64,000 nucleotides of DNA. It comes from Candidatus Micrarchaeota archaeon (GTDB lineage: Archaea > Micrarchaeota > Micrarchaeia > Anstonellales > Bilamarchaeaceae). A program made the translations under genes and the position numbers. Every line of letters begins with the position of its first letter. The stretch's first letter is position 1. A model generated the notes under the pieces. It did no database searches. It was not told the DNA's origin and saw only the letters and a program-made list of their open reading frames with translations. The DNA lies in the NCBI GenBank assembly GCA_018812715.1, contig JAHJCT010000011.1, positions 114,614 through 178,613 of the forward strand, read 5' to 3'. Positions 31,023 to 59,500 of this stretch are shown here, piece after piece.

Positions 31023-31031
31023 TGCAATACC

Positions 31032-32856: not shown

Positions 32857-32916
32857 AATATTTCGTTATATTTTTCTCTTTTAAATATAGTACGTAAACA
32901 ATAATCGTTCGACAGA

Positions 32917-34014: not shown

Positions 34015-34132
34015 ATTCTCATCTCAAGTGTTAGTTCTTGATTATTAGTGTATTTCATCATATATTAATATTTCTAGCAAAAATTTACAAAAAATGAAAG
34101 CTTTTTATTAATTTTTATAAAAAATAGCAATT

Positions 34133-35104: not shown

Positions 35105-35115
35105 GCAGTTTTTAA

Positions 35116-37408: not shown

Positions 37409-37412
37409 ACCA

Positions 37413-38174: not shown

Positions 38175-38235
38175 CTTATCGACCTCTAAAAACTATTAGG
38201 TTCATGAATTTAAATGTTATTCAATTAAAAAGGCC

Positions 38236-39409: not shown

Positions 39410-39646
39410 GCCCTTGTAGCTCAGCGGTAGAGCGCGTCCTTGGTATCCCAACTTTTAGGAAACAACAAAGAACTTTGTTCTTTGTGCCCCATGAAAGCAT
39501 TGTTTTTATGTGGGAGTTGGATCAAAACTGGCCAAAGAGGACGAGGTCGCGAGTTCAAAAAACTTTCCCGATGAAATCTCATATTAAAGTGTTATCAAAC
39601 TTCATGAGTTGAAACTGGTCAAGTTTTGGAAATCTCGCCGGGGGCT
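39410..39646 (+). tRNA. tRNA-Thr (anticodon GGU) with two introns (92 nt at 37/38 and ~73 nt in the T-loop at ~59/60)
   Basis: Exons: GCCCTTG-TA-GCTC-AGCGGTA-GAGC-G-CGTCC-TTGGTA[39446..39537]A-GGACG-AGGTC-GCGAG-TTCAAA[39560..39632]T-CTCGC-CGGGGGC-T. All four stems pair (acceptor with two G-U). Mature length 72 nt. First intron contains a perfect hairpin CAAAGAAC-TTT-GTTCTTTG. Confidence 0.75.
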
Positions 39647-39676
39647 ATTTATATTTCTTATGATCTTATTTTGCCT

Positions 39677-40615: not shown

Positions 40616-40841
40616 TATCAAGTAGTATGGAAATTTCCATCTCTGTCTCTAGTAAATTTATGACCATGGTCTACTTGACATAAAAATATATTTTCTTTTT
40701 TAACTAATGGGGACCAAAGTCCTTTGTATATATGACAATGTGGACATGCTGGACCTGTATTCATGGGATTTCACCTCTTCTGATCGAACCTACGCATATA
40801 CACTATTATGGTTTAAAAATGCTTGGTCTTTGATCTTTTCC

Positions 40842-41609
40842 ATGAGAGCTTTAGCAATTTTTATATTGTCGTTATTGTTGGTTTTTGGATGTGCAACTAC
40901 TGAACCTACTGAGCAACCGCCAGCTCAAAATATCTCAGAACCGCCTCTTGAAAATATTACTGAACCTGGAAACACAACTAATATTACCTGCGAGGAACAT
41001 TGCCCAACATTATCTCACATTCAATGTGTTGGTGAATGGAATATTTCAGGTATTTACCCTGATTGCGAATGCGAATTTACATGTAATACTGAAGAAGTTC
41101 AACCAGAAGAAAACATAACAGAAAATGAAACACCAGAGTTTTCATTTCCATTTACTAATCAAACTTTAGAGGAAATGATAACTGAAAATTTAGCTGAATT
41201 AAGAAGCGATTTTTATCATGATCATTCAGGAGTATTTGATGTCAATACTTATACTTGGAAACGCATTCCATCCAATGCCTCACCTGGTGAAATTACCATT
41301 GATGCTGCTCCAGCGTCAGACATAAAATTCGACGACACAGTAATTCAAAGTGTTCAAGCATCCGGTTTCATTGTTTTTGAAAATACTGGTACAGAAGAAA
41401 TCAATACTTTCGGCTTTGCCATCTTTAGTGAGATGATAACTATGCTAGATAGTTATACTGGCAGTGATGCTTTTGATATTTACTATTTTCAGGAGATAAT
41501 AGATAAAAATTTGTATGACTGCTGGGTCTACGAAAAGATTGTCGAAGAAAACAAAAATGGTTATGTCTCAACATACTTCTTCCAGTGTGAAAGAGTAATT
41601 GAAAAATGA
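40842..41609 (+). CDS. secreted Cys-containing hypothetical lipoprotein
   Basis: Start chosen at MRALAIFILSLLLVFGC (signal plus lipobox). Acidic Thr/Glu-rich body with CEEHC...C...C.C.C cluster. Confidence 0.4.
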   Translation: MRALAIFILSLLLVFGCATTEPTEQPPAQNISEPPLENITEPGNTTNITCEEHCPTLSHIQCVGEWNISGIYPDCECEFTCNTEEVQPEENITENETPEFSFPFTNQTLEEMITENLAELRSDFYHDHSGVFDVNTYTWKRIPSNASPGEITIDAAPASDIKFDDTVIQSVQASGFIVFENTGTEEINTFGFAIFSEMITMLDSYTGSDAFDIYYFQEIIDKNLYDCWVYEKIVEENKNGYVSTYFFQCERVIEK

Positions 41610-41930
41610 CGCGGCAAAGAGTCTAATAAGTCGGCAGCTTAGCTTTTTTTCCGTTCATACTGACTTTAGGAAACCGTCGTCCCCTCTTTTGAATCTGTGT
41701 TGCGGGTTTGCATTGCATTCGAAATGATCTCCCTTCTCGCATAAAGGAGAGTGCATACCTAAACCCATACTACACTCAGGACAACCCATTATGTATCCAT
41801 TTTCCATGGGTATCAACTCCATATTATACTGGTCGCATATTCATACGGAGGAGAACTTTTTAAATCATTGCATCATTTTTCCTCTAAAGTTCATGGAAAA
41901 TAATATAAAGCTAAAGATATATGACAAAGT

Positions 41931-44900
41931 ATGCGCGCATATCTTTTATTATTATTGATGATTTTAGCAGGTTTATCTTTTTCTATCGACGTTTCAAGCT
42001 GTGAGAATATCACAGCACCTGGTGTTTATGAACTAACTACCAATCTTGTAGGTGCACCTAATAATGCCTCTGAAGTATCGAGTATTGACTGGGCATGTAT
42101 AAAGATAGCATCTTCAGACGTAGTCTTTGACTGTATGGGATATACAATAACAAACGACGGAACTCTAGCTGCTGCAGGTATCGTTGTTAATGGTTCTAGT
42201 GGAATTAACTATCCCAATGTAACAGTAAGAAACTGCCCTTCGATTACACAATATTACTATGGTATTTACATTTATCGAACTAATGAAACTACCGTCACAA
42301 ATGTAACATTGTATAACAACACATATTCATTTGCTTCCCTTATATCTGATTATCTTAATCTCACAAATAACACAGCTTACGATCAAACTGCTGGTTTTGA
42401 GATTATTGGTTGTGCTGGATGCAGTCTTATTGATAATGTTGTTTACGATATGTCAGATGTTGGTATTGCTAGCAGTGGCTGTTTTTATTGTAATTTTATA
42501 AATAATAGTATGTATGACGGCTCAGATTATGGATTTTATATTGAGCAAACTGGTGATACTAATTTTATCAATAACACAGTTTTTGATATCTCTAATGATG
42601 CATTTCATATCAGCGGTGCTAGTGATTGCAACTTCATAAACAATACAGTCTATAACAGCCTCGATGGTATGGACCTTTATATGACCAGCAATATGACTAT
42701 CATCAATAACTCATTTTATAACAACAATGAAGATGCTATTGAAATTTATGAAGGTGGCGATAACAATTTATCAAATAACGAACTCTATAACAATGAACGG
42801 GGCCTCAGCATATACAATGCTTCTGCAACACGTGTAATCGGAGATCATTATTATAACAACAGCATAGATATCTTCGTTAATGGAACAGGAATAACAGTCG
42901 ATCTTTCTGGTGTTATCTTTGATAATGATGCTGGAACACTGGCAGATTACACAAACATCTCTTTAACTGATACAGTTGCATCCATCTACACTATAGATCA
43001 CGCAGTTCAACCCGCAGCACTACCGCCCAATATGGCGTCATTTGAAAATAAATTTGTAAACATTACAAATCTAACAAGCGGGGTTTCAATAGATACTATT
43101 ATCTGGCACTGGACAGAGGCTGAAACTGCTGGTTATACTGAAGCTAACTTTGAATTATGGAAATATAATGTTTCAGGTTGGGCCGATACTGGTGCTACCC
43201 CCAATACCGCAACTAACACATTCACTTTAACAAATCTAAATCCGGCAAGCACTTATGCAATATTGCAAACAAGTGTTTGTCCAGTTATAAGTTCAAGCGG
43301 AACATATGCCCAACTAGGCGATCTTGTTGGCGCCCCCAATTCTGCAAGTCCAGTTTTCGGTTCTGTATGTGTAAAGATAACTGCATCTAATGTTGTCTAT
43401 GATTGTAATGGTTATAGTATCACTAATGACGGAACAGGTTCTGCTATGGGTATAATGATTGGCAGAACATCAGATCTTAATCCAGAAATAACAAATGTTA
43501 CCGTTAGAAACTGCCCAAGCGTTTCGCAATATACCTATGGTATTTATACTCGCGGAGCTAATGATAGTTTCATAATTAATTCTACAGTTCACAACAATGC
43601 CGGCTATGGTACTTTCTTTATGCTCAGTAATGATATCACTGTTATCAATAGCACCGCACATAGCAATGGACTTGATGGATTTTATACCTCTACAAGTTCC
43701 ACATTTACTAATTTCTCCAATAACACAGCTTATAACAACACTCGTAGTGGTTTTGTTCTTTTCCCGGGAGCTAATAGTACAGTTTTGGATAACACTGCAT
43801 ATAATAACACGGAATATGGTTTCTACTGGAGAATGAGTGGTGGTAGTAACGCCATCAATAACACAGCACACAACAACGGGCTGAGTGGCTTCTATCTTTA
43901 TGATTCAGATAACAATACTCTTTTGAATAATACAGCGTACAATAATTCAAATGAAGGTATTCTTCTCGTTGATTCCAATAACAATGAATTCAATAATAAT
44001 GAAGCATATGAAAATTATGTTGGTATCTCAACTTATCATTCAGACTACAATACTCTGCAAAATAACTCGGTTCATAACAATGTAATGACTGCCATTGTTG
44101 TAAATAGTTCTTCTTATAACAATTTGACTAACAATACTATCTATAATCATCGCGGAGCGATGGGGCCAGCATTTGGAATTTATGTTGAAGCATCATCATA
44201 TCAAAATCAAATTACAGATAATAACCTCACTAATAACACGGTTTGTATAGTCCTGGGGGCAACCAGAACTGCATTTAATGGCGGTAACAATTGGATAGTA
44301 AATAACACTATGACTGATGCATATATGGGTGTTTTCCTTTACCTAGCTGATAATACATCTGTAATAGAAAATCATATCAGCAATGTTCCGGAGACGAGTG
44401 CAATTATCGTTTTAGGTTCTGATATTTATGGCATGTTTGGCGGCGGATATCTAGGCGCTTACAACAATACTTTCATTGGCAATGTAATAGAAAACAGTAC
44501 TGGTTTCATTTTCTACATGGCAAATAACAATGTAATTCAGTCAAATATTATAGCAAATGCCACTGGCTACTTTAATTGGTCTGACGCAGGGATTTTAGAA
44601 AATTATACTGGTTTTTACTTCTATGAATCCAATTATTCAAATCTGTCTGACAATTTAGTATACAATCTTTCTGGTTACGCACTCCACATAATCGATTCAG
44701 AATCTGTTAATGCCTCTGATACACATGTTTATAACAATGATAGAGGTGCTCTGTTTGTTTCTGCTTCAGTAGCAACAAATCTTTACTTATCAAACTTCAC
44801 AATAGATAATCCATCAGGCAACTTCCAAAATTATACAAGCATCTCACTTACTGATGCTGTTGATGGTGACAGTAAATATACTATTAACTGGTCATTCAAT

Positions 44901-47900
44901 TCAACTGCTTTACCTGCCAATTACTTTTCATTTGAAGGGAAATATGTAGATATAAGTCAATACAAAGGAGGAGTACCTAGTATAATAGATTCAATTACAT
45001 GGACTTGGCTAAATTCAGAGTTGTCAGGATATGATGAATCCAGATTTGAATTATGGCAATATAATGGAACTTGGACCAATATGGGTGCAACATTGGATAC
45101 TGGAGCAAACGCATTGACAGTAACAAACCTGAATCCAGAAAGTACCTATAGTATACTACAAAGTAATCTGTCTACATGTATGCTGATCAATTCTTCAGGT
45201 TATTATCAACTTAATACTAATCTTCAGGGTGCTCCAATAAATGCTGCCCCTCTAACCGGAACTGCTTGTATAAAAATAAATAGTTCAGATGTAGTCCTTG
45301 ATTGTAATGGATTTACTATTACAAATAATGGAACTGCTGGAACTACAAGAGGTATTCTAGCGGTAGGTCCAATCTCAAACATAACAATTTTCAATTGTCC
45401 AGGAATTGCAAATTATACCAATGGTATTGAGGTCGTTGAATCTAATGATACCTTAGTTCTAAATAATACGGTCTATGAAATTGGCACCGATGGTTTAAGT
45501 GTAACAAACTGTACCAACTCTGAATTTATCAACAACACAGCTTACAATATTACAGATGATGCCTTTGACTTTTACAACTGTACCAATATTACAGTGATAA
45601 ATAATACTGGCTATTTGATATTTAGTGGTGACATCTTTGAAAATAGTCTTTGCAACAATTGTGATTTCATAGATAACAGTGCTCTTGGAGGATTCGCCGA
45701 TGCCTTTGACTTTAATTATTGTAATAATACAAACCTCATAAACAATACCTTAAGTTTTGCTTTAGATAATCTTGTGGAAGCAACCTATTCTATAAATTGG
45801 ACCGTAATTAACAATACACTTCACGATGCTGGAAACGATGCCTTTTTCTTTGGCGATGCTGTCAATATTGTTTTCCTAAATAATACTGTTCATGATATAC
45901 AAAATGAATTCTTTGATATTGAACTTTGTAGTAATTGTAACCTCACCAACAACACAGGTTACATGTCATATGCTGGGGGCGGACTTAATCTTATTGATTC
46001 CAATATCATTACAGTAACAAATAACACTTTCTATGATGTTACTCTTGATGCTTCATATGCAGAAAATTGTACTAATTGTAATTTCATAAATAACACCGCT
46101 TATAACTCCACTGATGCAGATATATTTGATTTCGACAGATGTACTAACCTTACAGTAATGAATAATAGTGGTTTTCTAACACTTAACAGCAACATCTTTG
46201 AAACTAGCCGCTGTAATAATTGTGATTTCATAAATAATCTTGCTATGGGGGCAATAATTAATGCTAGTAGCGCCTTTGACTTTGCTGCTTGTAATAATAC
46301 CAACATCATAAACAATAATGTAACCTGGAGTATTAATGATCTTGTGCAAGTAAGTTATTGTATAAACTGCAGTGTAATCAATAACACACTTTACTATGCT
46401 GGGGGAGATGGTTTTGCTCTTGGTAAATCTATCAATTTTACTCTTTTAAATAATACAGTCAATGGTGTTATAGATGACGGAGCTGATATAAAAGAGTTAA
46501 ATGATAGTATCATTAGAAATAATTTATTATATAATATATCTGATAACGGTATTGAATTTTCTGAATGTGATAATTGCACTCTAATCAACAATACTATTTA
46601 TAATGTAAGTATTAATGGCTATTACTTAGATGAGATGACTAATTGTGTTCTTATCAATAATACAGCCTATGATATTGGAGACGATGGATATGATGGTGGA
46701 GATTCAAGCAATACTAATTTCACAAATAATTTAGCTTATGATACTGGAGGTGACGGTTTCCAATTTGAAGACTCTACTAACATCATTTTCCTTAACAACA
46801 CAGCATACGACAACCCTGAGTTTGGGTTCAGCCTAAACAACTCGCCGAGCAACACTTTTGTCAATAACACAGCGTATAATAATGGATATGCTGGGTTTGC
46901 TGCATTCCTTGGCTCTAATGGCAATAATTTCACCAGAAACCTGGCTTACAACAATACTGGTTTTGCACTCCTTGAAGTTTATAATACCAATCTGGATTCC
47001 AATATTGCGAGAGATAGTGAGGGTTATGGGGTCCAGGTAATTGGTCTTATGCTAGGCATACCATTTGTTGATGATCTAGATGACGTTGGTTTCCTTTTCT
47101 ATGAATCCGATAGTTCTATTGTATTCAACAATAGTGCTTACAATTTCACAGGAAACATGAGCGGAGATGAAGAATCATATGGTTTTGTTGTTTACTTAAG
47201 CGACAATAACAACTTCACCAACAATCTTGCACATACTACTAATGATTCCGGCTTCTTATTGCTAAATTCATCTTACAATAATCTTACCAATAATACTGTA
47301 TATGACAACCGGGAAGCTGGAATAGCTCTTGAAGAGAATTGTACTTGGAATATTCTAACTAACAACACTGCCCACCATAATGGCCTTATCGGTATTAATC
47401 TACAAGATGGTCCTTTCGCAAACGGAATATATGGAACAAATGCTTATAGTAATGGCTGGTGTTCCTTCCAAATTTTTGATGCTGATACGAATGGCTTCAT
47501 TAACAATACAGTGACTAATGACACTGGTTTCATTGTCATATTTTCCAATGATACTCAAATCCTTTCAAATACTGTAGCCAACAGCAGTGGAAGTGGAGTA
47601 AGCTCTTATATACCAACAATTGATGATAGTGGTGTTGTTTTGATATACTCTAACTACACTAATATATCTGATAATGTGGTTTACAATTTAACCAACAACA
47701 CATCTCATGCTTTCTATCTTGATCAAAGCAATAACAATCTTCTCATAAATAATACAGCTTATATTAATGGAGAAACAGGTTTCTATGTGCACAACTCCCA
47801 TTACAATACCTTAGTGAATAATACTGATAACAACAACCATGAAGGTTTTATTATTGACAGTGGCTCGTCCTTTAATATTCTCTATAACAACACGGCCATG

Positions 47901-48446
47901 TTTGACAATGGTTATCAAGTACTTGGTGCTGCATTCAACAATTCACTGATTGATAATACGGCTTATTATATAGAAGACAATGGTTTCAGTGTAAAAAATG
48001 GTGGCTTCAATACTACATTGATAAACAATACTGCATTATTCAGTGATGAAGCAGGCTATCTCATTATGATGTCTGATAATAACACGCTTTTCAATAACAC
48101 TGCATATAACAACTATGCCAATGGTTTCGAAATATTTATGGCTGCGGATAATCACCTCATCAATAACACTGCATACGAAAATAATGAATCAGGTTATTCA
48201 ATTGGCATGAATCTAGTTCCAAACTACTTCTTCAACAACACCGCATACGACAACAACTTCACTGGTTTTATGATCATGCAGAATAATAATAGTGATTTCC
48301 AAAACAATACAGTTCATGACAATGGTCTCATGGGCTTCTTAATAGTCTTGGCTGGCCACAACAATTTCACTAACAATACAGCTTATGACGGCAATGTAAG
48401 TGGTTTCTGGCTGGGTATGGATTCACGTTACAATGTTTTCACATAA
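41931..48446 (+). CDS. giant secreted right-handed beta-helix (NosD/PbH1-like) repeat surface protein, N-terminal 2171-codon segment
   Basis: Signal peptide. Dozens of ~22-aa NNTAYNN..GF.L... parallel beta-helix repeats organised into three super-modules, each opening with C...(S/A)PG.Y.L..NL.GAP.NA(S/A). Ends at a single in-frame TAA, see findings. Confidence 0.7.
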   Translation: MRAYLLLLLMILAGLSFSIDVSSCENITAPGVYELTTNLVGAPNNASEVSSIDWACIKIASSDVVFDCMGYTITNDGTLAAAGIVVNGSSGINYPNVTVRNCPSITQYYYGIYIYRTNETTVTNVTLYNNTYSFASLISDYLNLTNNTAYDQTAGFEIIGCAGCSLIDNVVYDMSDVGIASSGCFYCNFINNSMYDGSDYGFYIEQTGDTNFINNTVFDISNDAFHISGASDCNFINNTVYNSLDGMDLYMTSNMTIINNSFYNNNEDAIEIYEGGDNNLSNNELYNNERGLSIYNASATRVIGDHYYNNSIDIFVNGTGITVDLSGVIFDNDAGTLADYTNISLTDTVASIYTIDHAVQPAALPPNMASFENKFVNITNLTSGVSIDTIIWHWTEAETAGYTEANFELWKYNVSGWADTGATPNTATNTFTLTNLNPASTYAILQTSVCPVISSSGTYAQLGDLVGAPNSASPVFGSVCVKITASNVVYDCNGYSITNDGTGSAMGIMIGRTSDLNPEITNVTVRNCPSVSQYTYGIYTRGANDSFIINSTVHNNAGYGTFFMLSNDITVINSTAHSNGLDGFYTSTSSTFTNFSNNTAYNNTRSGFVLFPGANSTVLDNTAYNNTEYGFYWRMSGGSNAINNTAHNNGLSGFYLYDSDNNTLLNNTAYNNSNEGILLVDSNNNEFNNNEAYENYVGISTYHSDYNTLQNNSVHNNVMTAIVVNSSSYNNLTNNTIYNHRGAMGPAFGIYVEASSYQNQITDNNLTNNTVCIVLGATRTAFNGGNNWIVNNTMTDAYMGVFLYLADNTSVIENHISNVPETSAIIVLGSDIYGMFGGGYLGAYNNTFIGNVIENSTGFIFYMANNNVIQSNIIANATGYFNWSDAGILENYTGFYFYESNYSNLSDNLVYNLSGYALHIIDSESVNASDTHVYNNDRGALFVSASVATNLYLSNFTIDNPSGNFQNYTSISLTDAVDGDSKYTINWSFNSTALPANYFSFEGKYVDISQYKGGVPSIIDSITWTWLNSELSGYDESRFELWQYNGTWTNMGATLDTGANALTVTNLNPESTYSILQSNLSTCMLINSSGYYQLNTNLQGAPINAAPLTGTACIKINSSDVVLDCNGFTITNNGTAGTTRGILAVGPISNITIFNCPGIANYTNGIEVVESNDTLVLNNTVYEIGTDGLSVTNCTNSEFINNTAYNITDDAFDFYNCTNITVINNTGYLIFSGDIFENSLCNNCDFIDNSALGGFADAFDFNYCNNTNLINNTLSFALDNLVEATYSINWTVINNTLHDAGNDAFFFGDAVNIVFLNNTVHDIQNEFFDIELCSNCNLTNNTGYMSYAGGGLNLIDSNIITVTNNTFYDVTLDASYAENCTNCNFINNTAYNSTDADIFDFDRCTNLTVMNNSGFLTLNSNIFETSRCNNCDFINNLAMGAIINASSAFDFAACNNTNIINNNVTWSINDLVQVSYCINCSVINNTLYYAGGDGFALGKSINFTLLNNTVNGVIDDGADIKELNDSIIRNNLLYNISDNGIEFSECDNCTLINNTIYNVSINGYYLDEMTNCVLINNTAYDIGDDGYDGGDSSNTNFTNNLAYDTGGDGFQFEDSTNIIFLNNTAYDNPEFGFSLNNSPSNTFVNNTAYNNGYAGFAAFLGSNGNNFTRNLAYNNTGFALLEVYNTNLDSNIARDSEGYGVQVIGLMLGIPFVDDLDDVGFLFYESDSSIVFNNSAYNFTGNMSGDEESYGFVVYLSDNNNFTNNLAHTTNDSGFLLLNSSYNNLTNNTVYDNREAGIALEENCTWNILTNNTAHHNGLIGINLQDGPFANGIYGTNAYSNGWCSFQIFDADTNGFINNTVTNDTGFIVIFSNDTQILSNTVANSSGSGVSSYIPTIDDSGVVLIYSNYTNISDNVVYNLTNNTSHAFYLDQSNNNLLINNTAYINGETGFYVHNSHYNTLVNNTDNNNHEGFIIDSGSSFNILYNNTAMFDNGYQVLGAAFNNSLIDNTAYYIEDNGFSVKNGGFNTTLINNTALFSDEAGYLIMMSDNNTLFNNTAYNNYANGFEIFMAADNHLINNTAYENNESGYSIGMNLVPNYFFNNTAYDNNFTGFMIMQNNNSDFQNNTVHDNGLMGFLIVLAGHNNFTNNTAYDGNVSGFWLGMDSRYNVFT

Positions 48447-50114
48447 AATACAGTATATAATCATAGCTTTGGATTTATGATAAATTCTAGTTTATCTAAC
48501 AACTTCACCAATAATATGGTTCATGATATTCTTTGGCAAGGTTTCAATTTCTGGAATGCTAGTGATTCTGTTCTTACCAATAATAATGTTTATGGAAATG
48601 ATGTAGGTATAGGGCTTGATACATGTGGAGATAATTATTTGATTAACAATGAACTCTATGATAATAGCATAGGCCTTGGCATCGTCAATTCTTCTGCAAC
48701 TTTTGTAACAAGAGATCATTACTATAACAATACTATTGATTTTGGAGTCAATGGAACCGGGATAACAATTAATCTCTCAGAAGTTATCTTTGATAATCCA
48801 TTAGGAAACTTTGTCAATTTCACAAACATCTCTCTAAACGACACAGTTGCATCTGCTTATTCAATAGATCATGCAGTCGAACCTGCTCCATTGCCAACCG
48901 GTGCAACATCCTTTGAAAATAAATTTGTAAATATCACTAATGCCACCTCAGGCGTTTCAATAGATTCCATCGTCTGGCATTGGACAGATGCTGAATCAGT
49001 AGCATATGATGAACCTGCGTTTGGAGTATGGGAATACGATGGTTCTTGGTCAGATACTGGAGCAACTCTTGATACTGCAGCAAATACTCTTAGCCTCAGC
49101 AATCTTGCTACATTCAGCATTTTTGCAATTCTAGAATCTCCTGAAGATGAAGAAAATCCAAGTGATGAAGATAAAGAGTTTAGTCTATCATTTGATTCAA
49201 CATGTGATGGCAATACTCTAACTGTTACTTATAATGGCAATCCAGTTCCTGGTGCCTCAGTCAATGTCTATAATCCAACTACTATGCAAACCATTGCCTT
49301 AGGTACTACAAATGTTAATGGTGAATTCGAATTTAGTGGTTGTGACCTTACGATCCAAGTTCATGTTAGCAAAACTGGTTACGATTCTGAGACAGTTACC
49401 GAGCAATTAATTAACTGCGAACTTTGCCTAGAAGAAGAGGAACATCTTGAATGTGTGGATGATTTATGCATTGTTGTTCCCGGTCTTGGTCCAAATCTTT
49501 GCTCTTTAGATGCTGACTGCATGGAACCAGTGTACGAATGTTACTCAGATAATGATTGTGACGATACTGACTACTGTGACATTCTAGAAGGCGAAGCTGG
49601 AGGCAATTGTTTACCTGTTACTGGCGACTGTGGTTATGCACAAAATCATACTTGGGTTCAATATGAGTGTGGAGTTGATCCAGAATGTGTCCTTTGCCCA
49701 GAAGGTTTAGTTTGTGTAGAACATCAATGTGTAGAGGCCAATCTTACTGGTCCAGGTGAAGGATTTGTAGATGCTGAGGTTGATATAATCGCTACAATCA
49801 ACAACGAAACTTGTGCTTACTGCGATATTGAAATTGTTGATCCAACTGGCGAGCATTTCACTGGTTTAACAGATGAAAACGGAAGGATCCAAGTTCCATT
49901 GAATCTCAAGGGTCAATATACAATTACGCTTCTACAAAATGGACAAGTACTTGCTTCAAAAACAGTAGATGCGATTCCAAAGGCCCCACCTACAGACGAA
50001 CCCCCCCCAACAGAAAAGATTGGTGAGGACTTTACCTGGCTGTGGTTATTCATACTTTTAGCTGGCTTCTTTATTCTGTTCTTCTACTGGAGACAAAGGA
50101 AAAAGAAGAAATAA
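48447..50114 (+). CDS. in-frame continuation of the beta-helix surface protein: C-terminal segment with Cys-rich domain, TM anchor and KKKK tail
   Basis: Same frame as 41931..48446 with no further stops. Repeats a 170-aa module of the upstream segment almost verbatim. Ends ...FTWLWLFILLAGFFILFFYWRQRKKKK. Lacks its own signal peptide. Confidence 0.6.
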   Translation, partial: NTVYNHSFGFMINSSLSNNFTNNMVHDILWQGFNFWNASDSVLTNNNVYGNDVGIGLDTCGDNYLINNELYDNSIGLGIVNSSATFVTRDHYYNNTIDFGVNGTGITINLSEVIFDNPLGNFVNFTNISLNDTVASAYSIDHAVEPAPLPTGATSFENKFVNITNATSGVSIDSIVWHWTDAESVAYDEPAFGVWEYDGSWSDTGATLDTAANTLSLSNLATFSIFAILESPEDEENPSDEDKEFSLSFDSTCDGNTLTVTYNGNPVPGASVNVYNPTTMQTIALGTTNVNGEFEFSGCDLTIQVHVSKTGYDSETVTEQLINCELCLEEEEHLECVDDLCIVVPGLGPNLCSLDADCMEPVYECYSDNDCDDTDYCDILEGEAGGNCLPVTGDCGYAQNHTWVQYECGVDPECVLCPEGLVCVEHQCVEANLTGPGEGFVDAEVDIIATINNETCAYCDIEIVDPTGEHFTGLTDENGRIQVPLNLKGQYTITLLQNGQVLASKTVDAIPKAPPTDEPPPTEKIGEDFTWLWLFILLAGFFILFFYWRQRKKKK

Positions 50115-50124
50115 TTTTTATATT

Positions 50125-50723
50125 CTAATTCTTTTTTACTTGATATAATAATATTTTTACTCGCCTTTTGACCATGATATCAAAACAACTGTAGTTCCAT
50201 TCATTTTCTATCTTATATCCATATCTTTTAAGAGAATTGTGGAACCTTTTAAAATTTTTTTGGTATGCATCAGAGTATTGGATCCAGATACTACCATCCT
50301 TTGATAAATAATTTCTAGCATCATTAAAAAATCTACCAACAACTCCATTATCATAAATTGCATGTAAACTAGGAACCTCTGGAACTCCCTCAGACCAAGG
50401 GGGTGCAAAATTATAGTGTCGAATACTCCATTTACTTTATCGAAAAGATTCCCTTCCAGAACAATTGCTTCTGGAACAAGCTTTTTTGTTGCCTCAACAG
50501 CAGCTGGATTTATATCTACTGCTATAACTTCCGTTGCCCCTTTTTCTAATGCCATCTTAGAAATAACTCCTGAACCGGGGCCTATCTCTAAAACCCGTTC
50601 TCCAACAAACATATTATTTTCATACTGTCTTATTCTATTCTTGGCAGGAGTTAGATATCCTTGGCTATTGATATAATCCCAACCTAAAATTTTAGATAGC
50701 ATCAATCTTACAAAAGTTCTCAT
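50125..50723 (-). CDS. NPPY-type (HemK/Mtq2-like) SAM methyltransferase interrupted by a single-nucleotide frameshift
   Basis: Frame A (50723 to ~50400) gives VLEIGPGSGVIS...VIAVDINPAAVE...VFDTIIL. An adjacent frame continues ...NFAPPWSEGVPEVPSLHAIYDNGVVGRFF... to a TAG at 50125-50127. The junction lies in a TTTT/CCCCC homopolymer region around 50395-50410. Confidence 0.5.
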
Positions 50724-50816
50724 ATTTATGACCTATATGAAATTTGTCAATTATATCTTTTCATTATATACAGTTAAAAATCTCGCCCCAATGATAACTT
50801 AATAAAATTCTTTAAG

Positions 50817-51374
50817 TCAAGAAATTTGTTCTTTTAGGATAAAATAAAGATCAAAATAATCACGTGGCTGGTTTCTTGTTATGGCAGCCCTGAGTTTTTC
50901 TGCTATGAGTTCATTGAAATTAAGAACATTTATTTCAAAATCCAAATTATAGAAATTATGAACTTTTTTCCTATCTATTTTGATGTGAATTGATGCTTTT
51001 CTATTTGCATCTAGAATAATATAATTGTTATTTGAAAAATAACTCTGATAAAAGATTTTAATTCTTACAAAATTCCTGCTTTCATTTTCATATTCTATCC
51101 TTCTGAAATGTTTTTTGTCATTTTTAACAATTTCTTCTATTTTTGCCTTAATCTGGGTTATTGGAATAGTTGCTGTAAAATCTGCATCTTCAGAAAGACG
51201 CATGTGGTCTAAGAAAATTTTATTCAGGGCAGTTCCACCTTTGAAATATATCCCTTCAAAATCTTTCAGATGATAGAGCAAGATTGTTAGGAAATAATCT
51301 TTTTCCAGATATATAAGATTATATCCAGTTTCAGCTGCAATATTCCGAAGTTTTGCTTCATTTATCCGATCCAT
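50817..51374 (-). CDS. AbiEii-family nucleotidyltransferase toxin (type IV toxin-antitoxin, DUF1814)
   Basis: IYFKGGTALNKIF is the GGTAL signature of the AbiEii/DUF1814 nucleotidyltransferase. 185 aa, downstream of and overlapping the putative antitoxin. Confidence 0.6.
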   Translation of the reverse strand: MDRINEAKLRNIAAETGYNLIYLEKDYFLTILLYHLKDFEGIYFKGGTALNKIFLDHMRLSEDADFTATIPITQIKAKIEEIVKNDKKHFRRIEYENESRNFVRIKIFYQSYFSNNNYIILDANRKASIHIKIDRKKVHNFYNLDFEINVLNFNELIAEKLRAAITRNQPRDYFDLYFILKEQIS

Positions 51375-51907
51375 TTTTTACTTTCCCTCTTTGATGCGAT
51401 TAAAAAATCATGGTCCTTTATTTTCCTTTTAACTGTTTTTCCTAATTTTCTCACTCGTCTAAACTTGAACACAGAGCCAAGTATTTTCATTGTCCCTTGT
51501 TTTTTTGTAGAAAATACATCTATAACTGTGGGCAACTGATCTATCAACCCCCAATAATTTGCAGCTGCTTTGCCACCTATGTAGTAATCCTTTCCATTGA
51601 ACATTTCATCTGCTATGATGAATGGGTGTTCTGCCCAGCCTTTGTAGGCCTTTATCGGAATCAAGTAATATTTTTCCTTGTTTATTCTCTCAATTCTTCT
51701 TTTTTTCCTTAGCCTGTGTACGTAAACATTCAATTCATTGTCAGATGTAAAAAACTTTCTGATGTCCTTCTTTGAGAAAAATCTTTTTTCCTCTAGTTCA
51801 AGGTATGAAACTACTTCAATTTCTTTGTTTGACAAACCTTTGATACGATGCTTCGTATCAAATTTTGGCGCAGTTTTTTGCAATCCTTTGATTTTCTTCT
51901 TAGTCAT
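51362..51907 (-). CDS. AbiEi-like antitoxin/transcriptional regulator
   Basis: ...YYIGGKAAANYWGLIDQLPTVIDVFS... matches the AbiEi C-terminal domain pattern (Y.sl.sAl.y.GL.dq.p..i.v). Basic N-terminus. Gene order antitoxin then toxin with 13-nt overlap. Confidence 0.5.
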   Translation of the reverse strand: MTKKKIKGLQKTAPKFDTKHRIKGLSNKEIEVVSYLELEEKRFFSKKDIRKFFTSDNELNVYVHRLRKKRRIERINKEKYYLIPIKAYKGWAEHPFIIADEMFNGKDYYIGGKAAANYWGLIDQLPTVIDVFSTKKQGTMKILGSVFKFRRVRKLGKTVKRKIKDHDFLIASKRESKKWIG

Positions 51908-52152
51908 GTTATGTTACACCAATATTAATGATATAGTAATATTACTGTAGCATAATCTTTATAAATATATTGTTCAAAACAGTCCAACATCCAACGTTTT
52001 CATAAAAGTCTTAGTTGTTGGGGTTTCGATTATATGTTAATATCAATTAACAAAAAATTTACAATATGATGATTAGAGTTAACAAAAGATCAAGAAAAAT
52101 GATATTAGTGTGGCAACATTCAGTAAGATAAATAACAAAAACCATAAATATC

Positions 52153-52306
52153 TGGCGCCCCAACGGCGATTTGAACGCCGAATTCAACCTGTCAGCTTGG
52201 CCTTTCGGTGAGAAACACCCAAAAAAACGAGAATGTGTTTTAGGGCGCCGTTTCCCAAAAGGCGCAACCGCAGGGTTGCGTCCTATCCAGATTAGACTAT
52301 TGGGGC
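52153..52306 (-). tRNA. tRNA-Arg (anticodon GCG) with 77-nt intron at the canonical 37/38 position, CCA encoded
   Basis: Minus-strand exons: GCCCCAA-TA-GTCT-AATCTGGATA-GGAC-G-CAACC-CTGCGG[intron]A-GGTTG-AATT-CGGCG-TTCAAAT-CGCCG-TTGGGGC-G-CCA. All stems Watson-Crick or G-U. T-loop TTCAAAT. Confidence 0.75.
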
Positions 52307-52420
52307 TCTAGAGACATATTTAAATATGTATAGCTTTTAAATATTGTCTACACTTCTGAGGTTAAAATAGCCTCAAGTGAATCTTTCTAGACGATTGTAT
52401 TTGTTGTTTTAGGTGATATA

Positions 52421-52567
52421 TTGCAAAGATGTATAACTTGCGGAAGAAATACTAAGAACTTCGCTCAGTTCCCCTGTGCAGAGTGCAGTGAGAAGATCAT
52501 TAGATGTGACTTCTGCAGAGAAAATAGAAACAAATATACTTGCAAGTGTGGCTTTACCGGCCCGTAG
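52421..52567 (+). CDS. small Zn-ribbon protein (4x Cys pairs) upstream of aEF-1beta
   Basis: TTG-initiated 48-codon ORF: (M)QRCITCGRNTKNFAQFPCAECSEKIIRCDFCRENRNKYTCKCGFTGP*. CxxC...CxxC...CxxC...CxC spacing. Position immediately 5' of aEF1beta resembles the conserved archaeal Zn-ribbon/EF1B gene pair. Confidence 0.45.
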   Translation: MQRCITCGRNTKNFAQFPCAECSEKIIRCDFCRENRNKYTCKCGFTGP

Positions 52568-52575
52568 GTGTAATG

Positions 52576-52833
52576 ATGGCAGAATATAACGTTGTAGCAC
52601 AATTGAAAGTTTATGTTGAAAATCCCGAACAAATGGACTCTGTAAAAACTGGTATAGAAAATCTTGCAAAAGTCCAGGATTTTAAGGAAGAGGATGTTGG
52701 TTTTGGTATCAAAGTACTCAAGGTTACCATCCTTATGATGGATTCTGAAGGCGGGATGGATGAATTAGAAGAAAAAATAAAAACTCTTGAAAATGTAAGT
52801 CAAGTTGAAGTTGAAGGCGTCAGCAGGGTGTAA
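52576..52833 (+). CDS. ef1b: elongation factor 1-beta (aEF-1beta)
   Basis: MAEYNVVAQLKVYVENPEQMDSVKTGIENLAKVQDFKEEDVGFGIKVLKVTILMMDSEGGMDELEEKIKTLENVSQVEVEGVSRV, archaeal EF1B length and conserved AFGLKAL-like core. Start at internal Met of the track ORF. Confidence 0.85.
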   Translation: MAEYNVVAQLKVYVENPEQMDSVKTGIENLAKVQDFKEEDVGFGIKVLKVTILMMDSEGGMDELEEKIKTLENVSQVEVEGVSRV

Positions 52834-52835
52834 TC

Positions 52836-53387
52836 ATGGCAAAAAAAGTTCCTAAAAAAACTAAAAAACCTGAAAAAGAAGAAAATGAAAATTTCAGAGG
52901 TATTGTTCGTATTGCAGGAAAAGATGTGAATGGAAAAGTAACTCTTAAAAGAGCCCTTCATCGTGTTAGAGGTATTGGACACACCATGGCACATGTGGCA
53001 GCCTTGGCAATCACAAAAGAGCTTTCTTTAGATCCACTTAAACCTATTGGAGAATACACTGAAGCTGATATAGAAAAAATTGATAAGATTCTATTTAGTA
53101 TGCAAGATCATAATGTTCCATCATTTCTCTTAAATCGCTGCAAGGATTTCAATTCCGGCGATAATAAGCATGTAATTATGAATGATCTCATATTTGAAGT
53201 AAATCAGGATGTTGATAGAGATAAAAAGATGTACTCCTGGAAAGGTTATAGGCATTCTTATGGGCAAAAAGTTAGAGGCCAAAAAACCAGAAACACAGGT
53301 AGAAGTGGTATGGCCCTTGGTGTTCTAAGAAAATCAATTATAGCAGCACAAGGAGGCGCCAAAGAACCAGCAAAGGAGAAGAAGTGA
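52836..53387 (+). CDS. rps13: 30S ribosomal protein S13 (uS13)
   Basis: FRGIVRIAGKDVNGKVTLKRALHRVRGIGHTMAHVA is the uS13 N-terminal signature. Basic C-terminus. Confidence 0.9.
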   Translation: MAKKVPKKTKKPEKEENENFRGIVRIAGKDVNGKVTLKRALHRVRGIGHTMAHVAALAITKELSLDPLKPIGEYTEADIEKIDKILFSMQDHNVPSFLLNRCKDFNSGDNKHVIMNDLIFEVNQDVDRDKKMYSWKGYRHSYGQKVRGQKTRNTGRSGMALGVLRKSIIAAQGGAKEPAKEKK

Positions 53388-53391
53388 TAAC

Positions 53392-53961
53392 ATGGGAGAC
53401 CCACCTAAATTCAGAAACAAATTTGAACGACCAAAGAAACTTTGGGATGTAGATCGCATTAGACATGATTCTGCTCTAAAGAATGAATATGGCCTCAAAA
53501 ACATGAGTGAAATCTGGAGAGCTAACGAAGAGCTCAAAAAATACAGACGAGAGGCAAGGCGACTTCTTTCTGTAACAGAAGAGGAAAGACGTGATGATGC
53601 ACAGAAAATACTTCAAAAACTTGATAAATTTGGCATCCTAAAAAAAGGCTCATCTATTGATGATGTACTTTCTCTTGAAGTGCGCGTAGTTCTTGAAAGA
53701 CGATTACAAACCTTGTTAGTGCGCAAGGGTCTGGCCAGAACAATGGTTCAAGCAAGACAACTAGTTACACACGGCTTCGTATCACTAGGCGGAAGAAAAA
53801 TTACCCGCCCTGGTTATATGGTAACCGTTCATGAAGAACCAACAATTGCTTATGTTCGTGCTATTGATTTAAGTGTTAGACCTGAAGAAGAATCAAGTAA
53901 GGAAGAAAAACCTAAACCAGATTTAACTGAAGAAACAAAGCCAGAAGAAAAGGTGAACTAA
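53392..53961 (+). CDS. rps4: 30S ribosomal protein S4 (uS4)
   Basis: [23 protein letters not shown]...[16 protein letters not shown]... uS4 N-terminus, plus S4 RNA-binding domain ([30 protein letters not shown]). Confidence 0.9.
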
Positions 53962-54410
53962 TGGCAGAAGAACCAAAAGAGGAAAAAAAGCCAGAAGAAA
54001 AAACAGAAGAAGTAAAGAAACCTAAAAAACGCAGGTATGCTGTCATACACGTTTATTCTTCAAAAAATGATACAATAATCACCGCGACTGATCTCAGCGG
54101 GGCTGAAACTCTTGCATGGGCAAGTGGTGGAATGGTTGTAAAATCTCATCGCGAAGAAGGAAGACCATACGCAGCAATGCAAGCGGCTCTTAGAGTCGTT
54201 ACCAATCTTAAAGATAAGGGCATAACTAATGTTACTGTAAAAATCAGGGCGCCGGGCGGTGTTGGACTTAAAACACCTGGTTCGGGGGCACAGGCAGTTG
54301 TTAGAACTATTGCAAGGACCGGGGTTCGTATTGGAAGAATCGAAGACGTCACACCCTTACCCACGGACTCTATGAAGAGAAAGGGCGGAAGAAGGGGAAG
54401 AAGAGTATGA
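53961..54410 (+). CDS. rps11: 30S ribosomal protein S11 (uS11)
   Basis: ...[32 protein letters not shown]...[28 protein letters not shown] matches uS11. Start overlaps S4 stop (TAATG). Confidence 0.9.
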
Positions 54411-55102
54411 AATTGGTTCTTGATAAAAAACACGAAAATAGGGTTGAGTTCCTGGTGGATGGTATCTCTTTACCATTTGCAAATATGTTGAGGAGATATG
54501 CTATCTCTTCTATCCCAGTGCTTGCTGTTGATTCTGTAGTTTTTTATGATAATAATAGTGCTTTCTGGGATGAATATCTTGCACATCGTCTTGGATTAAT
54601 GCCAATTATTACACCTGAAAAACTTCCTGAAAGTACAGAAATCGTATTTACTCTGGATGCTGAAGGGCCTAAAATAGTTTATGCAAGTGATATGAAGAGT
54701 TCTGATAAAGAAATTTCTATTGCTAAAGATAAATTACCATTTGTTACCTTAGGACCAAATCAACATGTTAGATTAGAAGCTAAAGCAATTCTTGGTACTG
54801 CAAAGCAACATGCTAAATTCCAGGCAGGAATTGTTAGCTATGGTGAAGATGGCAAAGGTCTTAGATTTACAGTGGAAAGCTTCTTCCAAATGACTCCAAC
54901 CGATGTTTTACAGCGTACTTGTGATGTAATTGAAAGCGATATCAATGATGTAGAAGCTGCCCTTGGTGAAACAAAACCTGTTAAAAAATCTAAGAAAAAG
55001 AAGACTGAAGAAACGGTAGAACCAAAGAAGGAAGAAAACGTTGAGGAAGAAGAAAAACTAAAGAAAACTGAAGCTAAGGAAAAATCCAAGAAAAAGAAAT
55101 AA
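54407..55102 (+). CDS. rpoD: DNA-directed RNA polymerase subunit D (Rpo3)
   Basis: ...[46 protein letters not shown]... matches the RpoD/Rpb3 dimerisation domain. Lys-rich C-terminal tail. Follows S11 as in the conserved S13-S4-S11-RpoD operon. Confidence 0.85.
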
Positions 55103-55110
55103 CTATTTTC

Positions 55111-55312
55111 GCAGGGGTGGCAGAGCGGCCAAATGCGCCAGCTTGAGGAACTTTTTTGGAAAAAAGTTCCACCAAAAACTGATTGTTTATGGTGGTTATC
55201 CAAATAAGTTGCGAAATGTTTAGGAAATAGCAGCCTGTTTTGGTTTCGCTTTTCCTAAAAGCGGAAGGCTGGTGGGTTAGTCCCTACGAGTGTTCGAATC
55301 ACTTCCCCTGCA
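55111..55312 (+). tRNA. tRNA-Leu (anticodon GAG), class II with long variable arm and ~118-nt anticodon-loop intron
   Basis: GCAGGGG-TG-GCA-GAGCGGCCAAA-TGC-G-CCAGC-TTGAGG[intron ~55149..55266](G/A)-GCTGG-TGGGTTAGTCCCTAC-GAGTG-TTCGAAT-CACTT-CCCCTGC-A. Acceptor fully paired. Intron begins with a perfect hairpin AACTTTTTT-GG-AAAAAAGTT. Starts 9 nt after the rpoD stop. Confidence 0.7.
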
Positions 55313-55344
55313 TTTTGATCCACAAGCCAAATTATTCCTCAAAA

Positions 55345-56391
55345 TCAGGGTACAACTTTCCTATCCTTTTCTTTTTTTATATTAATCGCATAAAAGATTT
55401 CTTCACTTAATCCTCTCCTCGTGATTTCTCTACATAGTTGTGGATCAAATTTAAAAAGGCCACTTGTCTGTCTAAGATTATTCTTAGTCATTATAAGAAC
55501 TGCTGCATCAATTATTGCCTTATCACTGAGAAATCTGGAACCCTTCGGTAAAATTACTCCACGTGGCGGCATTATAGATACTAAAGGAATTCTTGTATCT
55601 CCCTCATCCATAATCTCACTATTAATACGCAGTACCAGACCTCTTCGGTATATGTGCTTAACAAGATGCCTATCCCTATCCTGGAGATGACCAATTGTTA
55701 AAATATCTCTATCGGCCAGCTTTCTAAGCGCAGTAGAAATGATATATTCATCGCTTTCTCGAATATATGGATCCGCTTTAGGGCCAGCCCTGCTAGGACC
55801 TCCATATGTACCTCGTTTTTTCTTCACACAATCCATTACCTGTTGCGTGAGTCTTTTTTTGTATAAGATCCCTACAAGATAATTCTCCACTTGCCGAAGG
55901 TCTTTGATTGTCTCATAATTCAAACCAATTATTATATCAACAGCACCATCAATCAATTCTTGGTCTGTAAGCGATTTCCAGTGCTCTTGTGATTTTGGTA
56001 CATAAGAATCTTTAGCTGACAACTGATCATCAGAAGTTTCAAGTGTTGCGGATTTTTTCTGAGTATCACCCCCTATTAGAACTGTTGCATGTAAAGAAAG
56101 AATTGGAGTAATATCAGTTGTTGCAAGTTCACCACTATCAAAAAGCATTTGTACTGCTGGAATGAAATCAGATTCGGCTAACTCTGCAATACTATGTTGC
56201 GCACTTAGTTGCTCTTCACGAGCAGAAGCTTTCACATGAGTCTGGACTGCCGCAGCCATAAGGAGAACTGAAGGAGTTTGCATACACTCCTCCATAAGTG
56301 AATATCTCGTGAACCTTTTCTTGACTTCATCGGAAGCACTCCTATAAATATCTCTTACAGTCCTTCGTAACTTCTTTAGTTGTGGTTGCAT
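55345..56391 (-). CDS. hypothetical protein
   Basis: 348-aa ORF with good coding character. No motif recognised (no P-loop, no Cys cluster). Confidence 0.4.
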   Translation of the reverse strand: MQPQLKKLRRTVRDIYRSASDEVKKRFTRYSLMEECMQTPSVLLMAAAVQTHVKASAREEQLSAQHSIAELAESDFIPAVQMLFDSGELATTDITPILSLHATVLIGGDTQKKSATLETSDDQLSAKDSYVPKSQEHWKSLTDQELIDGAVDIIIGLNYETIKDLRQVENYLVGILYKKRLTQQVMDCVKKKRGTYGGPSRAGPKADPYIRESDEYIISTALRKLADRDILTIGHLQDRDRHLVKHIYRRGLVLRINSEIMDEGDTRIPLVSIMPPRGVILPKGSRFLSDKAIIDAAVLIMTKNNLRQTSGLFKFDPQLCREITRRGLSEEIFYAINIKKEKDRKVVP

Positions 56392-56532
56392 GCTACTAAC
56401 TATGTAACAGAAGATATAAATATATTATCATAATTAACCACTGAATAAATATTACAATCTGCATTTTATTCCAATTTGTTATCAATTTTCGTATAAAAAA
56501 ACCTTTATAAATGATATATTGGTTATGTACTG

Positions 56533-59500
56533 ATGCGATTTACATATTTTGTCTTGATTTTGGCTTTAATTAGCTTGGGATTTGCCATCTCACCTTTGGC
56601 CATTGATGTTCTAGAACCTGCTGGTGATATAGAAATAAACCAAAATAGAATATACAATGTAACTGTTAATGTATCATGTAATGTTGGAGATTGTGGAGAT
56701 GTTAATGTCTCTTTGGATAATTTTCCAACTTCATGTAAAGCAATCTTAGATCTAGGTCAAAGTATTGGCGATGGAGAGTATACTATATACCCAGCCAATC
56801 ATCCTTCTGGAATAGATGTTTATTGTGATATGACCACTGATGGCGGGGGTTGGACCTTGGTATTTGCAGGTATGGGAAGCACCTCAACTTATGCTTCTAC
56901 CTGGTCAGGCTGGTTTTCTGAAGGTTCAACCACAGAAATAACTGATAAAAGCACCGAAGGAAAAAGTCCAGCATATGATAGTGTTACAGTGAGTACTTTA
57001 ATGCTGGAGTCAACTTATGGAACAGACGGAATAATTATCGCAGATTTAGATCAAACTTATTCCAGTCTTCTGGATCTGGTTGGACCTGATCCAGGGTATA
57101 ATGATGGAAGCACTTCCTGGGATAATGGATTAAAAGGGCCATTTACTGCCAATTATCCTCATACTGGTGATCATTTTGTTAATGATTGGATTAGGATATG
57201 GGTTGGAGATGGAGATTATGATGAGCAGGATAGAGTTGTTTTTGCTACCCAACTTGGTGAAGGGGACTGGTCTGGTCATGATAATCCCGGTGCAATTGGC
57301 GGCGAATACCAAACAGCAAGAGATGGAAGTGATTGGTACTACGTATGGGTGAGAGAAGAAGGCACATATGAATCGTATTCTGATGTCATTACGATAAATA
57401 ATGGCGAATCCGAAATCGTAATCTTTTCAGTAAATGCAACTGTTATCGGAAATTACACTTATTATGCTTATGCAGAAGAGGTTTCTAACCCATCTGTCAA
57501 CACAACTAGTAGCACCTGGAATGTAACTGTATATCCCCCTATACAGGTTATTTTTTCATCTCCAGGAAAATATGTTTCTGGCAATGATGTTACCGTAAAT
57601 CTCACCACAAGGTATTTTGTGGAAGGTCTAGACAGTATCTGGTGGAATAATGGAACAGCAAACCAGACATATTCAGGAGAAACTACTGACTATTATCCAG
57701 ATGGGTTTTATACATTTACTGCATATGCCAATGACAGTGCTGGTTATCTGGCCTCAACAATACTAAATTTCAACGTCAATATATGTGGTTTGGAACTTGA
57801 TTCTGATTATACACTTGAATATGATCTTGATTGCAGTGAATATTCTGAAGCTGCAGTTATTATTACTGAAGAAAATGTTACTCTTGATTGTGATGGCCAT
57901 TCAATAATCGGTCCTGGTTATGATACAGGAGTTTATTCCGAGTATGATAATACTATTATACAAAATTGCATTATAAGTAATTTTAATGAAGGTATACAGT
58001 TCTATGATTCTTCTAATGGCTTTATAATCAACAATACTTTTGACTCAAATTATTATGGTCTTTGGCTTGGGGAAAACTCAGATAATAATATAGTTACTTA
58101 CAATACTTTCACTTCAAATGATTATGGATTTTATTTAGAATTTGCCGATAACAACCAAATAGGGCATAACACAGTTGATATGTCGTATTCTAATTTTGGT
58201 GATTCTTCCTGTCCCTTTGTTTATGCATGGAATGGCGAAGAGTATGACTTCATAACTGATTTTTCCAGCAGTGGCAGATTAGCAGCTTCGAGTAAGGGAA
58301 CCCCAAGGGTCTACTATGACTATGTGAAACTTTCAAATGAACAATTAAAACCAGAATCTGGTTTTTACCAAATTCAATTAACAGAAGAATACGATGAAAT
58401 CTCATATGTCGATGAGCTCACATTAATTACAATAGACCATCCATCTGATTATGATGTTTACACTGGATTTACTATGGATGATAAAAGCGATATTTATACA
58501 GTTAGCAAAACTTTATTGCCAATTGAATCATGTGTGGATGAATCAGGGCAGGATTGTACGTCTGAAGTTTCTACCAAGGATGGCATATATACTGAAAAAG
58601 CAGATGGTGTAAATAAAAAAACATTTGAGCTTGATCTTGGTGATCTTTCAGAAGATGTTAAATTAGTTATAACTTATGCAAAAGCTCTCGACCTTGATCT
58701 GGATGACGAGACAAGATCAATTCAGATAAAAAATTCAGAAGGTGTTTGGACTGATTTATATACTCATTCCGAGTTAATCTCTTCTCCAAATGCCCCAAAT
58801 ACCTATGTTCTTGATCTTACTGGGTTATTGGTCTATGATAATTCAGTAAAATTAATACTTCCAGAAGGATTAATTGACTATCTTGCAGTTGATACTTCGC
58901 CACAACAAGAAGTAGTTGTAAACGCATATTCTCCTGATTCTGCAAATCTACACTACCATGGTTATTCTGAAGATATTAGCAACGATGTAGTTGATTATGA
59001 TTATTATTCTCTTGCATCACTTCGAAATAACGAACCCACTGGTTACTTCACTAAATATGGAGATGTTAACGAACTCCTTACTTCAACTGATGATATGTAC
59101 GTTATCATGCACGATGGTGATGAGATTTCAGTTGAATTCCAATACAATGCTCCAGAAGAGGGGATGACAAGAGATTTCCTTGTTTACAGCTGGTATTACT
59201 ACAAACCTGCAAAGAAATTTTTAGATGATTATACTGTTGATCCATTACCATTTGTTGGCATGAGCACTTATCCATATCCAGAAGGAGAAACTTACCCACA
59301 AGATGAAGAACATCAAGCTTATCTTTCGGAATGGAATACCCGATATTACGAAAGACCAATGAGAATGGGCGGCTCATTACCGTATTCCTTCAATAATACA
59401 GTATTTGAAAATACTATTATAGGAAGTAGTTCTGGTTATGGTTTATATCTATACGAGGAAGATTCAACATTGTTGCTAAATAACAATATCTCAGATGTAG

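Follow-up and report, generated by a model that had tools for sequence, protein, structure and literature searches.

Does a single in-frame TAA in the genome of a Candidatus Micrarchaeota archaeon separate two genes, mark a site of recoding, or break one very large gene in two? The question is raised by two adjacent open reading frames (ORFs) on the forward strand of a 64,000-nucleotide stretch of contig JAHJCT010000011.1 (assembly GCA_018812715.1), which we analysed as a whole and refer to as the window. The upstream ORF (41931..48446, 2,171 aa) and the downstream ORF (48477..50114, 545 aa) share one frame, and the 30 nt between the TAA that closes the former and the ATG at 48477 are open in that frame. 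An earlier sequence-only reading of the locus had noted this arrangement, and indeed the TAA at 48444-48446, which occupies codon 2172, is the sole stop within 41931-50114; when window base 48444 is changed to G, a clean ORF of 2,727 codons results. The window has a GC content of ~36%, and its base composition predicts ~0.068 stops per random codon, which puts the computed chance of a 555-codon open continuation at ~1e-17. Thus, the continuity across the TAA is not a product of chance. The region 41931-50114 is one plus-strand gene, whose 2,727 sense codons specify a giant surface protein of the beta-helix type and are broken in this assembly by a single TAA.

The domains on the two sides of the stop belong to one and the same fold. 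Pfam matches to the right-handed parallel beta-helix and NosD repeats exceed the gathering score both upstream and downstream. The upstream part is recognized by Beta_helix (PF13229; E=2e-121, 401.5 bits against a cut-off of 25.9) and NosD (PF05048; E=1e-79, 267 bits against a cut-off of 23.6), and the downstream part by Beta_helix at 29 bits, with its residue 1 already at profile position 39 of 158, and then by CarboxypepD_reg. In a test segment that includes the stop as residue 71, a single Beta_helix match extends over residues 1-98 and crosses it. The coil period of 23-24 residues is likewise unbroken: the motif N-[TS]-x-[YHF] recurs at residues 2055, 2078, 2102, 2125, 2148, and 2172 (the stop), with another coil ~23 residues further on. 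The stop sits in register, on the position before the conserved N-T-x-Y, at which 34 of the 38 coils have Asn. With the register kept and one Pfam match spanning the stop, the earlier statement that the repeat pattern runs straight across it is well founded.

The architecture of the protein is complete only when the two parts are read together. The gene opens with its only signal peptide, MRAYLLLLLMILAGLSFSI, at the N terminus of the translation (41931..41987), and a TATA-like AATATAAAG lies ~25-30 nt upstream of the ATG at 41931, as at other first genes of the window. Three modules follow on the motif map, with a consensus consisting of an N-cap (C-I/V-K-I-x2-3-S-D/N-V-V-x-D-C-x-G), coils of 23-24 residues, a C-cap (DHYYNN/THVYNN), and a beta-sandwich (I-x-W-H/T-W). 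Module 1 (41988..43268) combines the N-cap CIKIASSDVVFDCMG, beta-helix coils, the C-cap DHYYNN, and a beta-sandwich domain with IIWHW. Module 2 (43269..45161) has the same order of elements with the C-cap THVYNN. In module 3 (45162..49136), a beta-helix of ~1,130 aa extends between the N-cap at aa 1113 and the C-cap DHYYNN at aa 2262 (48714-48731), after which comes a beta-sandwich. The TAA lies inside module 3, four coils and 90 residues ahead of its C-cap. Beyond the modules are a CarboxypepD_reg-like immunoglobulin (Ig) domain (49221..49400; Pfam PF13620, E=1.4e-10, residues 259-318 of the 555-aa fragment), a Cys-rich region seen in the translation and conserved across all homologues (49413..49751), and a C-terminal transmembrane (TM) anchor, FTWLWLFILLAGFFILFFYW, with the basic tail RQRKKKK (50031..50111 in the translation); the same ending of TM helix and basic tail is found on other secreted proteins of the window. 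The signal peptide is confined to the upstream part, and the Cys-rich region, TM helix, and KKKK tail to the downstream part, just as the sequence-only reading had described them. N-glycosylation sequons are dense on either side of the stop, at 6.4 per 100 aa in the upstream part and 7.7 per 100 aa over the first 130 residues of the downstream part, compared with 0-1 in the cytoplasmic proteins of the window.

The state of codon 2172 could be compared in independent assemblies, namely the Logan assemblies of the Illumina runs SRR2540949 and SRR2544004, which were found via exact look-ups of flanking genes. The biofilms sampled in these metagenomes had formed on garnet (MMR) and on glass (MMG), respectively, in “modern marine” groundwater of the Äspö Hard Rock Laboratory (PMC5364579). 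Four Logan contigs, corresponding to window positions 23039-38981, 39467-49214, 49285-55313, and 55119-56953 and totalling 33,555 bp, differ from the window at two bases, 43253 and 48444, both of which are within the giant gene; over the 25.4 kb outside it, the match is perfect. Since there are only two differences in 33,555 bp, the Logan source and the window are, as far as these contigs allow the comparison, the same near-clonal population. The difference at 43253 is synonymous (T in the window and A in Logan, Thr441 ACT/ACA). At 48444, the SRR2540949 contig that equals window 39467-49214 in all but these two bases has G in place of T, so that codon 2172 reads GAA (Glu). Gene calling on that contig gives one stop-free ORF of 2,428 codons, cut short by the contig end, and Glu versus stop at position 2172 is the sole amino acid difference from the window. 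The garnet biofilm is thus the source of the intact allele. Over the 1,600 bases compared, the downstream part shows no difference from that allele, with neither a second stop nor a frameshift; because no second stop is present among the ~69 nonsense-target site equivalents downstream, we calculate that the TAA is younger than ~4% neutral divergence. The SRR2540949 contigs break within the giant gene, leaving a 70-nt gap at 49215-49284. No exact 16-mer repeat in the window accounts for this gap, which may reflect further local polymorphism or a drop in coverage.

More distant comparisons speak to the ancestral state. The nearest proteins in a collection of 5.8 billion sequences are 36-39% identical; all are beta-helix surface proteins of Micrarchaeota or other DPANN archaea, and they share the C-terminal region, which in them is fused to a signal peptide and a beta-helix. 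Scans of genome and metagenome contigs for a near-identical copy returned none, but only orthologues at 28-48% identity. All-against-all BLAST of the flanking ORFs establishes that the orthologous loci are syntenic with the window, sharing a homologue of 40707-41609 (no Pfam match), the beta-helix gene or genes, a minus-strand methyltransferase, and an operon with EF-1beta, S13, S4, S11, and an RNA polymerase subunit. The sequence-only reading had suggested comparing such loci, and in them the ORFs are uninterrupted, with 2,375 aa in L001 (JAHJDH010000019.1, 4922-12049) and at least 2,334 aa in L010. BLAST pairs the stop with Glu in all orthologues (FVENEVYNN; codons GAG, GAG, and GAA). The stop codon is therefore not conserved at the site, which is GAA in the same population and GAG/GAA, or Met/Glu in an alternative register, in the orthologues. 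Because GAA matches the Glu of the orthologues and is one transversion from TAA, the aligned sequences indicate that the ancestral and still-extant codon 2172 is GAA, from which TAA differs by a G-to-T change. Asn had been entertained as the ancestral residue because the protein's own repeats suggest it, but it is two steps from TAA and was replaced by Glu, which is one step away, in the light of the Logan contig.

On balance, then, we think that the TAA is probably a real, very recent, and unfixed nonsense allele, which segregates in the Äspö “modern marine” groundwater/biofilm population and was taken up by the assembler of the metagenome-assembled genome (MAG). Its most serious competitor, which we consider quite possible but less probable, is that the T at 48444 is a base error of sequencing, assembly, or polishing in the MAG consensus, in which case only the intact GAA allele would exist and the split would not be biological. 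Such an error is consistent with the G read by the independent assembly of the same population and with the Glu of the orthologues, and the TAA allele is seen nowhere else, its 545-aa product occurring in one NCBI record only and on no other indexed contig; furthermore, a G-to-T change is a typical artefact of oxidative damage. However, the site is outside homopolymers and repeated DNA, the giant gene is the only interrupted gene in the 64 kb, and the perfect agreement with Logan outside it points to an assembly that is otherwise accurate. De Bruijn assemblers, moreover, require erroneous k-mers to recur, and the difference at 43253 would demand a second independent error. It is the unique, non-homopolymeric site, the Logan agreement outside the gene, and the second, synonymous difference within it that modestly favour a real allele over an error, the difference at 43253 looking more like part of a variant haplotype than one of two independent errors. 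Assemblies of the Fennoscandian Shield Genomic Database (FSGD) were made with MEGAHIT at a min-count of 2, partly as co-assemblies by water type (PMC8275790). If the MAG is in the FSGD, then recurrent support for the T was required, as each retained k-mer must have been seen at least twice. We infer this membership from the Äspö origin of the identical reads and from the contig naming of the neighbouring MAG L001. Four points weigh against a segregating allele: the T at 48444 has been seen in one assembly only; the link of the MAG to the FSGD and MEGAHIT is itself indirect; with just two differences in 33.5 kb, a variant haplotype and two consensus errors cannot be told apart; and the Glu of the orthologues depends on the register, as the MAFFT alignment is offset by one coil, which places Met or Glu opposite the stop. 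The gene is also a large mutational target, with a computed ~227 + 69 nonsense-target site equivalents.

Two other sources of the difference were considered and rejected. The sequence-only reading had placed a possible assembly error “inside highly repetitive DNA”, a description that does not suit this site: at the DNA level, the internal direct repeats of the giant gene are 60-75% identical, and no 16-mer of 48400-48480 recurs elsewhere in the window, leaving the stop in unique DNA. With internal repeats at ≤75% identity and no shared 16-mers, repeat-driven misassembly is rejected. DPANN archaea carry diversity-generating retroelements, and the gene was accordingly considered as a target of one; this too is rejected, since there is no near-identical pair of template and variable repeats, the best repeats being those at 60-75%, and a G/T difference is not adenine mutagenesis. 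The earlier reading had further held that reads showing a sense codon would reveal a sequencing error, and to the extent that an independent assembly reads GAA, this has come about in part. Among the three options that it offered, a recent nonsense mutation and a sequencing or assembly error both stand, and low-level readthrough falls away.

Readthrough of the UAA, whether programmed or tolerated, would yield a mostly shed 2,171-aa form along with a minor, full-length, anchored one. Although frame and domain continue perfectly past the stop and low-level near-cognate reading is compatible with the sequence, we regard this as very improbable. A stop that is GAA in the same population and Glu in the orthologues is not under conservation, and the 120 nt from the stop onward (48441-48560) fold no better than shuffled sequences (z=-0.64), giving no sign of a stimulatory RNA structure. 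The stop context is UAA-A, there is no slippery site at the UAA, and an Rfam scan of the window yielded no match. In Archaea, readthrough has been demonstrated only for UGA/selenocysteine (Sec) and UAG/pyrrolysine (Pyl), and a review of recoding does not mention UAA (PMC8211752). TAA is, in addition, an ordinary terminator in the window, where TGA ends 26, TAA 22, and TAG 11 of 59 ORFs. Genes closed by TAA include EF-1beta, the last residue of which is Pfam profile position 88/88, TsaD/Kae1, and S4. The sequence-only reading was hence right to call TAA a genuine terminator, but not in citing Lrp as an instance, since both tandem Lrp genes end in TGA. The same counts bear on a reassignment of TAA to a sense codon in this organism, for which nothing speaks beyond the single in-frame TAA; no other window gene has an in-frame TAA, and we consider this the least probable of all the explanations, effectively refuted. 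No tRNA genes are present in the window. Given the GAA of the Logan contig, the unconserved stop, and the normal terminator role of TAA, recoding is as unlikely as had been supposed, and a programmed mechanism at the TAA is not supported.

There is also hardly any likelihood, in our estimate slightly less than for readthrough, that the 545-aa ORF is a gene of its own, expressed from an internal promoter or by termination-reinitiation at the ATG at 48477. This ORF is annotated as a protein in GenBank, its ATG lies 30 nt past the stop, and a TATA-like GTATATAAT is centred ~19 nt upstream of that ATG. But the last of these consists of V-Y-N codons at a distance too short for a leaderless start, the first genes of the window having their TATA-like box ~25-35 nt upstream; nor is there a Shine-Dalgarno motif, as neither GGTG nor GAGG precedes the ATG, whereas the internal operon genes of the window have such motifs at -9 to -12. 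Motif inspection thus led us to reject an internal promoter or ribosome-binding site for the downstream ORF; a sigma-70 scan was also run, but is unsuited to an archaeon. The product would start mid-coil rather than at a domain boundary, without an N-cap or a signal peptide, and yet it is dense in sequons, Cys-rich, and anchored at its C terminus, and in every homologue this region is joined to a signal peptide and a beta-helix on its N-terminal side. The remaining neighbouring ORFs of the window that share a frame, two Lrp/AsnC genes and UbiD beside AcnX, are complete, separate genes, and the small ORFs that overlap at 2366-3596 encode ribosomal proteins S9, L13, and L18e.

If the TAA is a real allele, two products would be expected in the population. 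The GAA allele would encode one protein of 2,727 aa, which would be exported via its N-terminal signal peptide, is probably N-glycosylated, and would present ~2,400 residues of beta-helix and sandwich modules outside the cell, in the form of three NosD-like right-handed modules, while being tethered in the membrane by the C-terminal TM helix with its KKKK tail. To judge from its architecture, the protein probably serves an episymbiotic Micrarchaeon as an adhesin. The TAA allele would instead give an exported beta-helix of 2,171 aa with an uncapped end, lacking the last four coils, the C-cap, the sandwich domain, and the anchor, and this product would be shed or unstable. Its downstream 545 codons would not be usefully expressed; even if reinitiated, the 545-aa product would be cytoplasmic and devoid of an N-cap, making a function implausible. 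That two alleles coexist could be taken to mean that the TAA allele is ecologically meaningful, marking a sub-population of the Micrarchaeon in which adhesin anchoring is switched off; we consider this improbable, if not to the degree of readthrough or separate expression. Loss of the anchor may, for example, occur in planktonic rather than biofilm cells, or serve as an escape from a virus for which the protein is the receptor. A still less likely alternative is that readthrough of the UAA, never demonstrated in Archaea, restores some full-length product from the TAA allele.

The biological importance of the stop is small, and the usefulness of the case lies in annotation. In NCBI, the 545-aa ORF has an exact match, MBU0532101.1 ([quoted passage not shown]), encoded on a 244-kb contig. 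The 2,171-aa upstream ORF, sought in the protein collection with three candidate starts, has no entry, and GenBank may treat it as a pseudogene; neither ORF was matched when its exact protein was looked up in the contig index. Both parts are best annotated as one 2,727-codon gene, with the G/T variant noted at codon 2172. More generally, the case shows that separate assemblies of individual runs from one population, set against each other, can settle whether a “recoding candidate” in a MAG is what it seems. Giant surface proteins are thought to serve DPANN archaea in contact with their hosts, and, if the nonsense allele is real, it would be a small example of standing loss-of-function variation in such proteins. 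It would be mildly interesting if a loss-of-anchor allele differed in frequency between biofilm and planktonic cells, as it then might.

Several other features of the window deserve mention. A second giant surface protein of 1,853 aa (56533-62094, +) has a fibrinogen-C-like N-terminal domain, Beta_helix/NosD, Laminin_G_3, and a C-terminal TM helix with a KKKK tail; its architecture differs from that of the 41931-50114 gene. Between the methyltransferase gene and the operon of EF-1beta and ribosomal proteins sits a type IV toxin-antitoxin pair (50817-51907, -), comprising an AbiEii toxin (PF08843, E=2e-24) and a weak AbiEi-like antitoxin. The tandem Lrp/AsnC genes at 4669-5631 are in one frame with a TGA and 9 nt between them, the second having its own GAGGTG Shine-Dalgarno motif, and a 323-aa protein at 34133-35104 contains two AsnC-type helix-turn-helix domains. 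A cluster at 29452-37408 combines a putative AcnX swivel subunit (29452-29856), AcnX (29853-31022), a UbiD-like protein (31032-32324), a flavoprotein that is perhaps UbiX-like (32308-32856), an AA_kinase (35116-35889), and a GHMP kinase (36506-37408), and resembles the archaeal-type mevalonate pathway. DPANN genomes are usually thought to be without lipid precursor synthesis, against which a mevalonate-type cluster would be notable.

Among the closest known systems is the 2,375-aa giant of JAHJDH010000019.1, which occupies the same syntenic position and has a signal peptide, three modules, CarboxypepD_reg, the Cys-rich region, a TM helix, and a basic tail, like the window gene. The Micrarchaeota relatives differ from it in being only ~30-44% identical in amino acid sequence, in their numbers of coils, and in being uninterrupted. 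At the syntenic locus they also carry an extra tandem paralogue, whereas the window has the giant gene only: a single-module gene of 1,059-1,060 aa lies beside the three-module giant of ~2,375 aa (1680-4859 and 4922-12049 in L001; 9641-12823 onward in L002). The beta-helix family evolves fast in its number of modules and coils, its 30-44% identity comparing with 60-90% for the flanking housekeeping genes.

An analogy may be drawn with archaeal recoding at UGA/Sec and UAG/Pyl and with the -1 frameshifting of fucA1 in Saccharolobus solfataricus (PMC8211752, PMC1616953), where an interrupted gene likewise has two parts that make up one protein. Unlike in those cases, the codon here is UAA, slippery site and stimulatory structure are lacking, and the interruption is unconserved and missing from a sibling assembly. 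A better parallel is provided by the nonsense-interrupted genes of draft genomes and MAGs, which similarly combine a single premature stop with an otherwise intact long ORF, intact orthologues, and no recoding signals. The gene resembles pseudogenes in having a disrupting lesion relative to intact orthologues, but it departs from established ones, in which the lesion is fixed and the downstream sequence decays, in that an intact allele exists one base away in the same population and no differences are found in the compared bases downstream. The “pseudogenisation of a giant adhesin” proposed from the sequence alone is in this respect an overstatement, given the coexisting intact allele and the lack of decay in the 1.6 kb downstream. 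A single nonsense difference in a very large gene of a draft MAG is a familiar kind of case.

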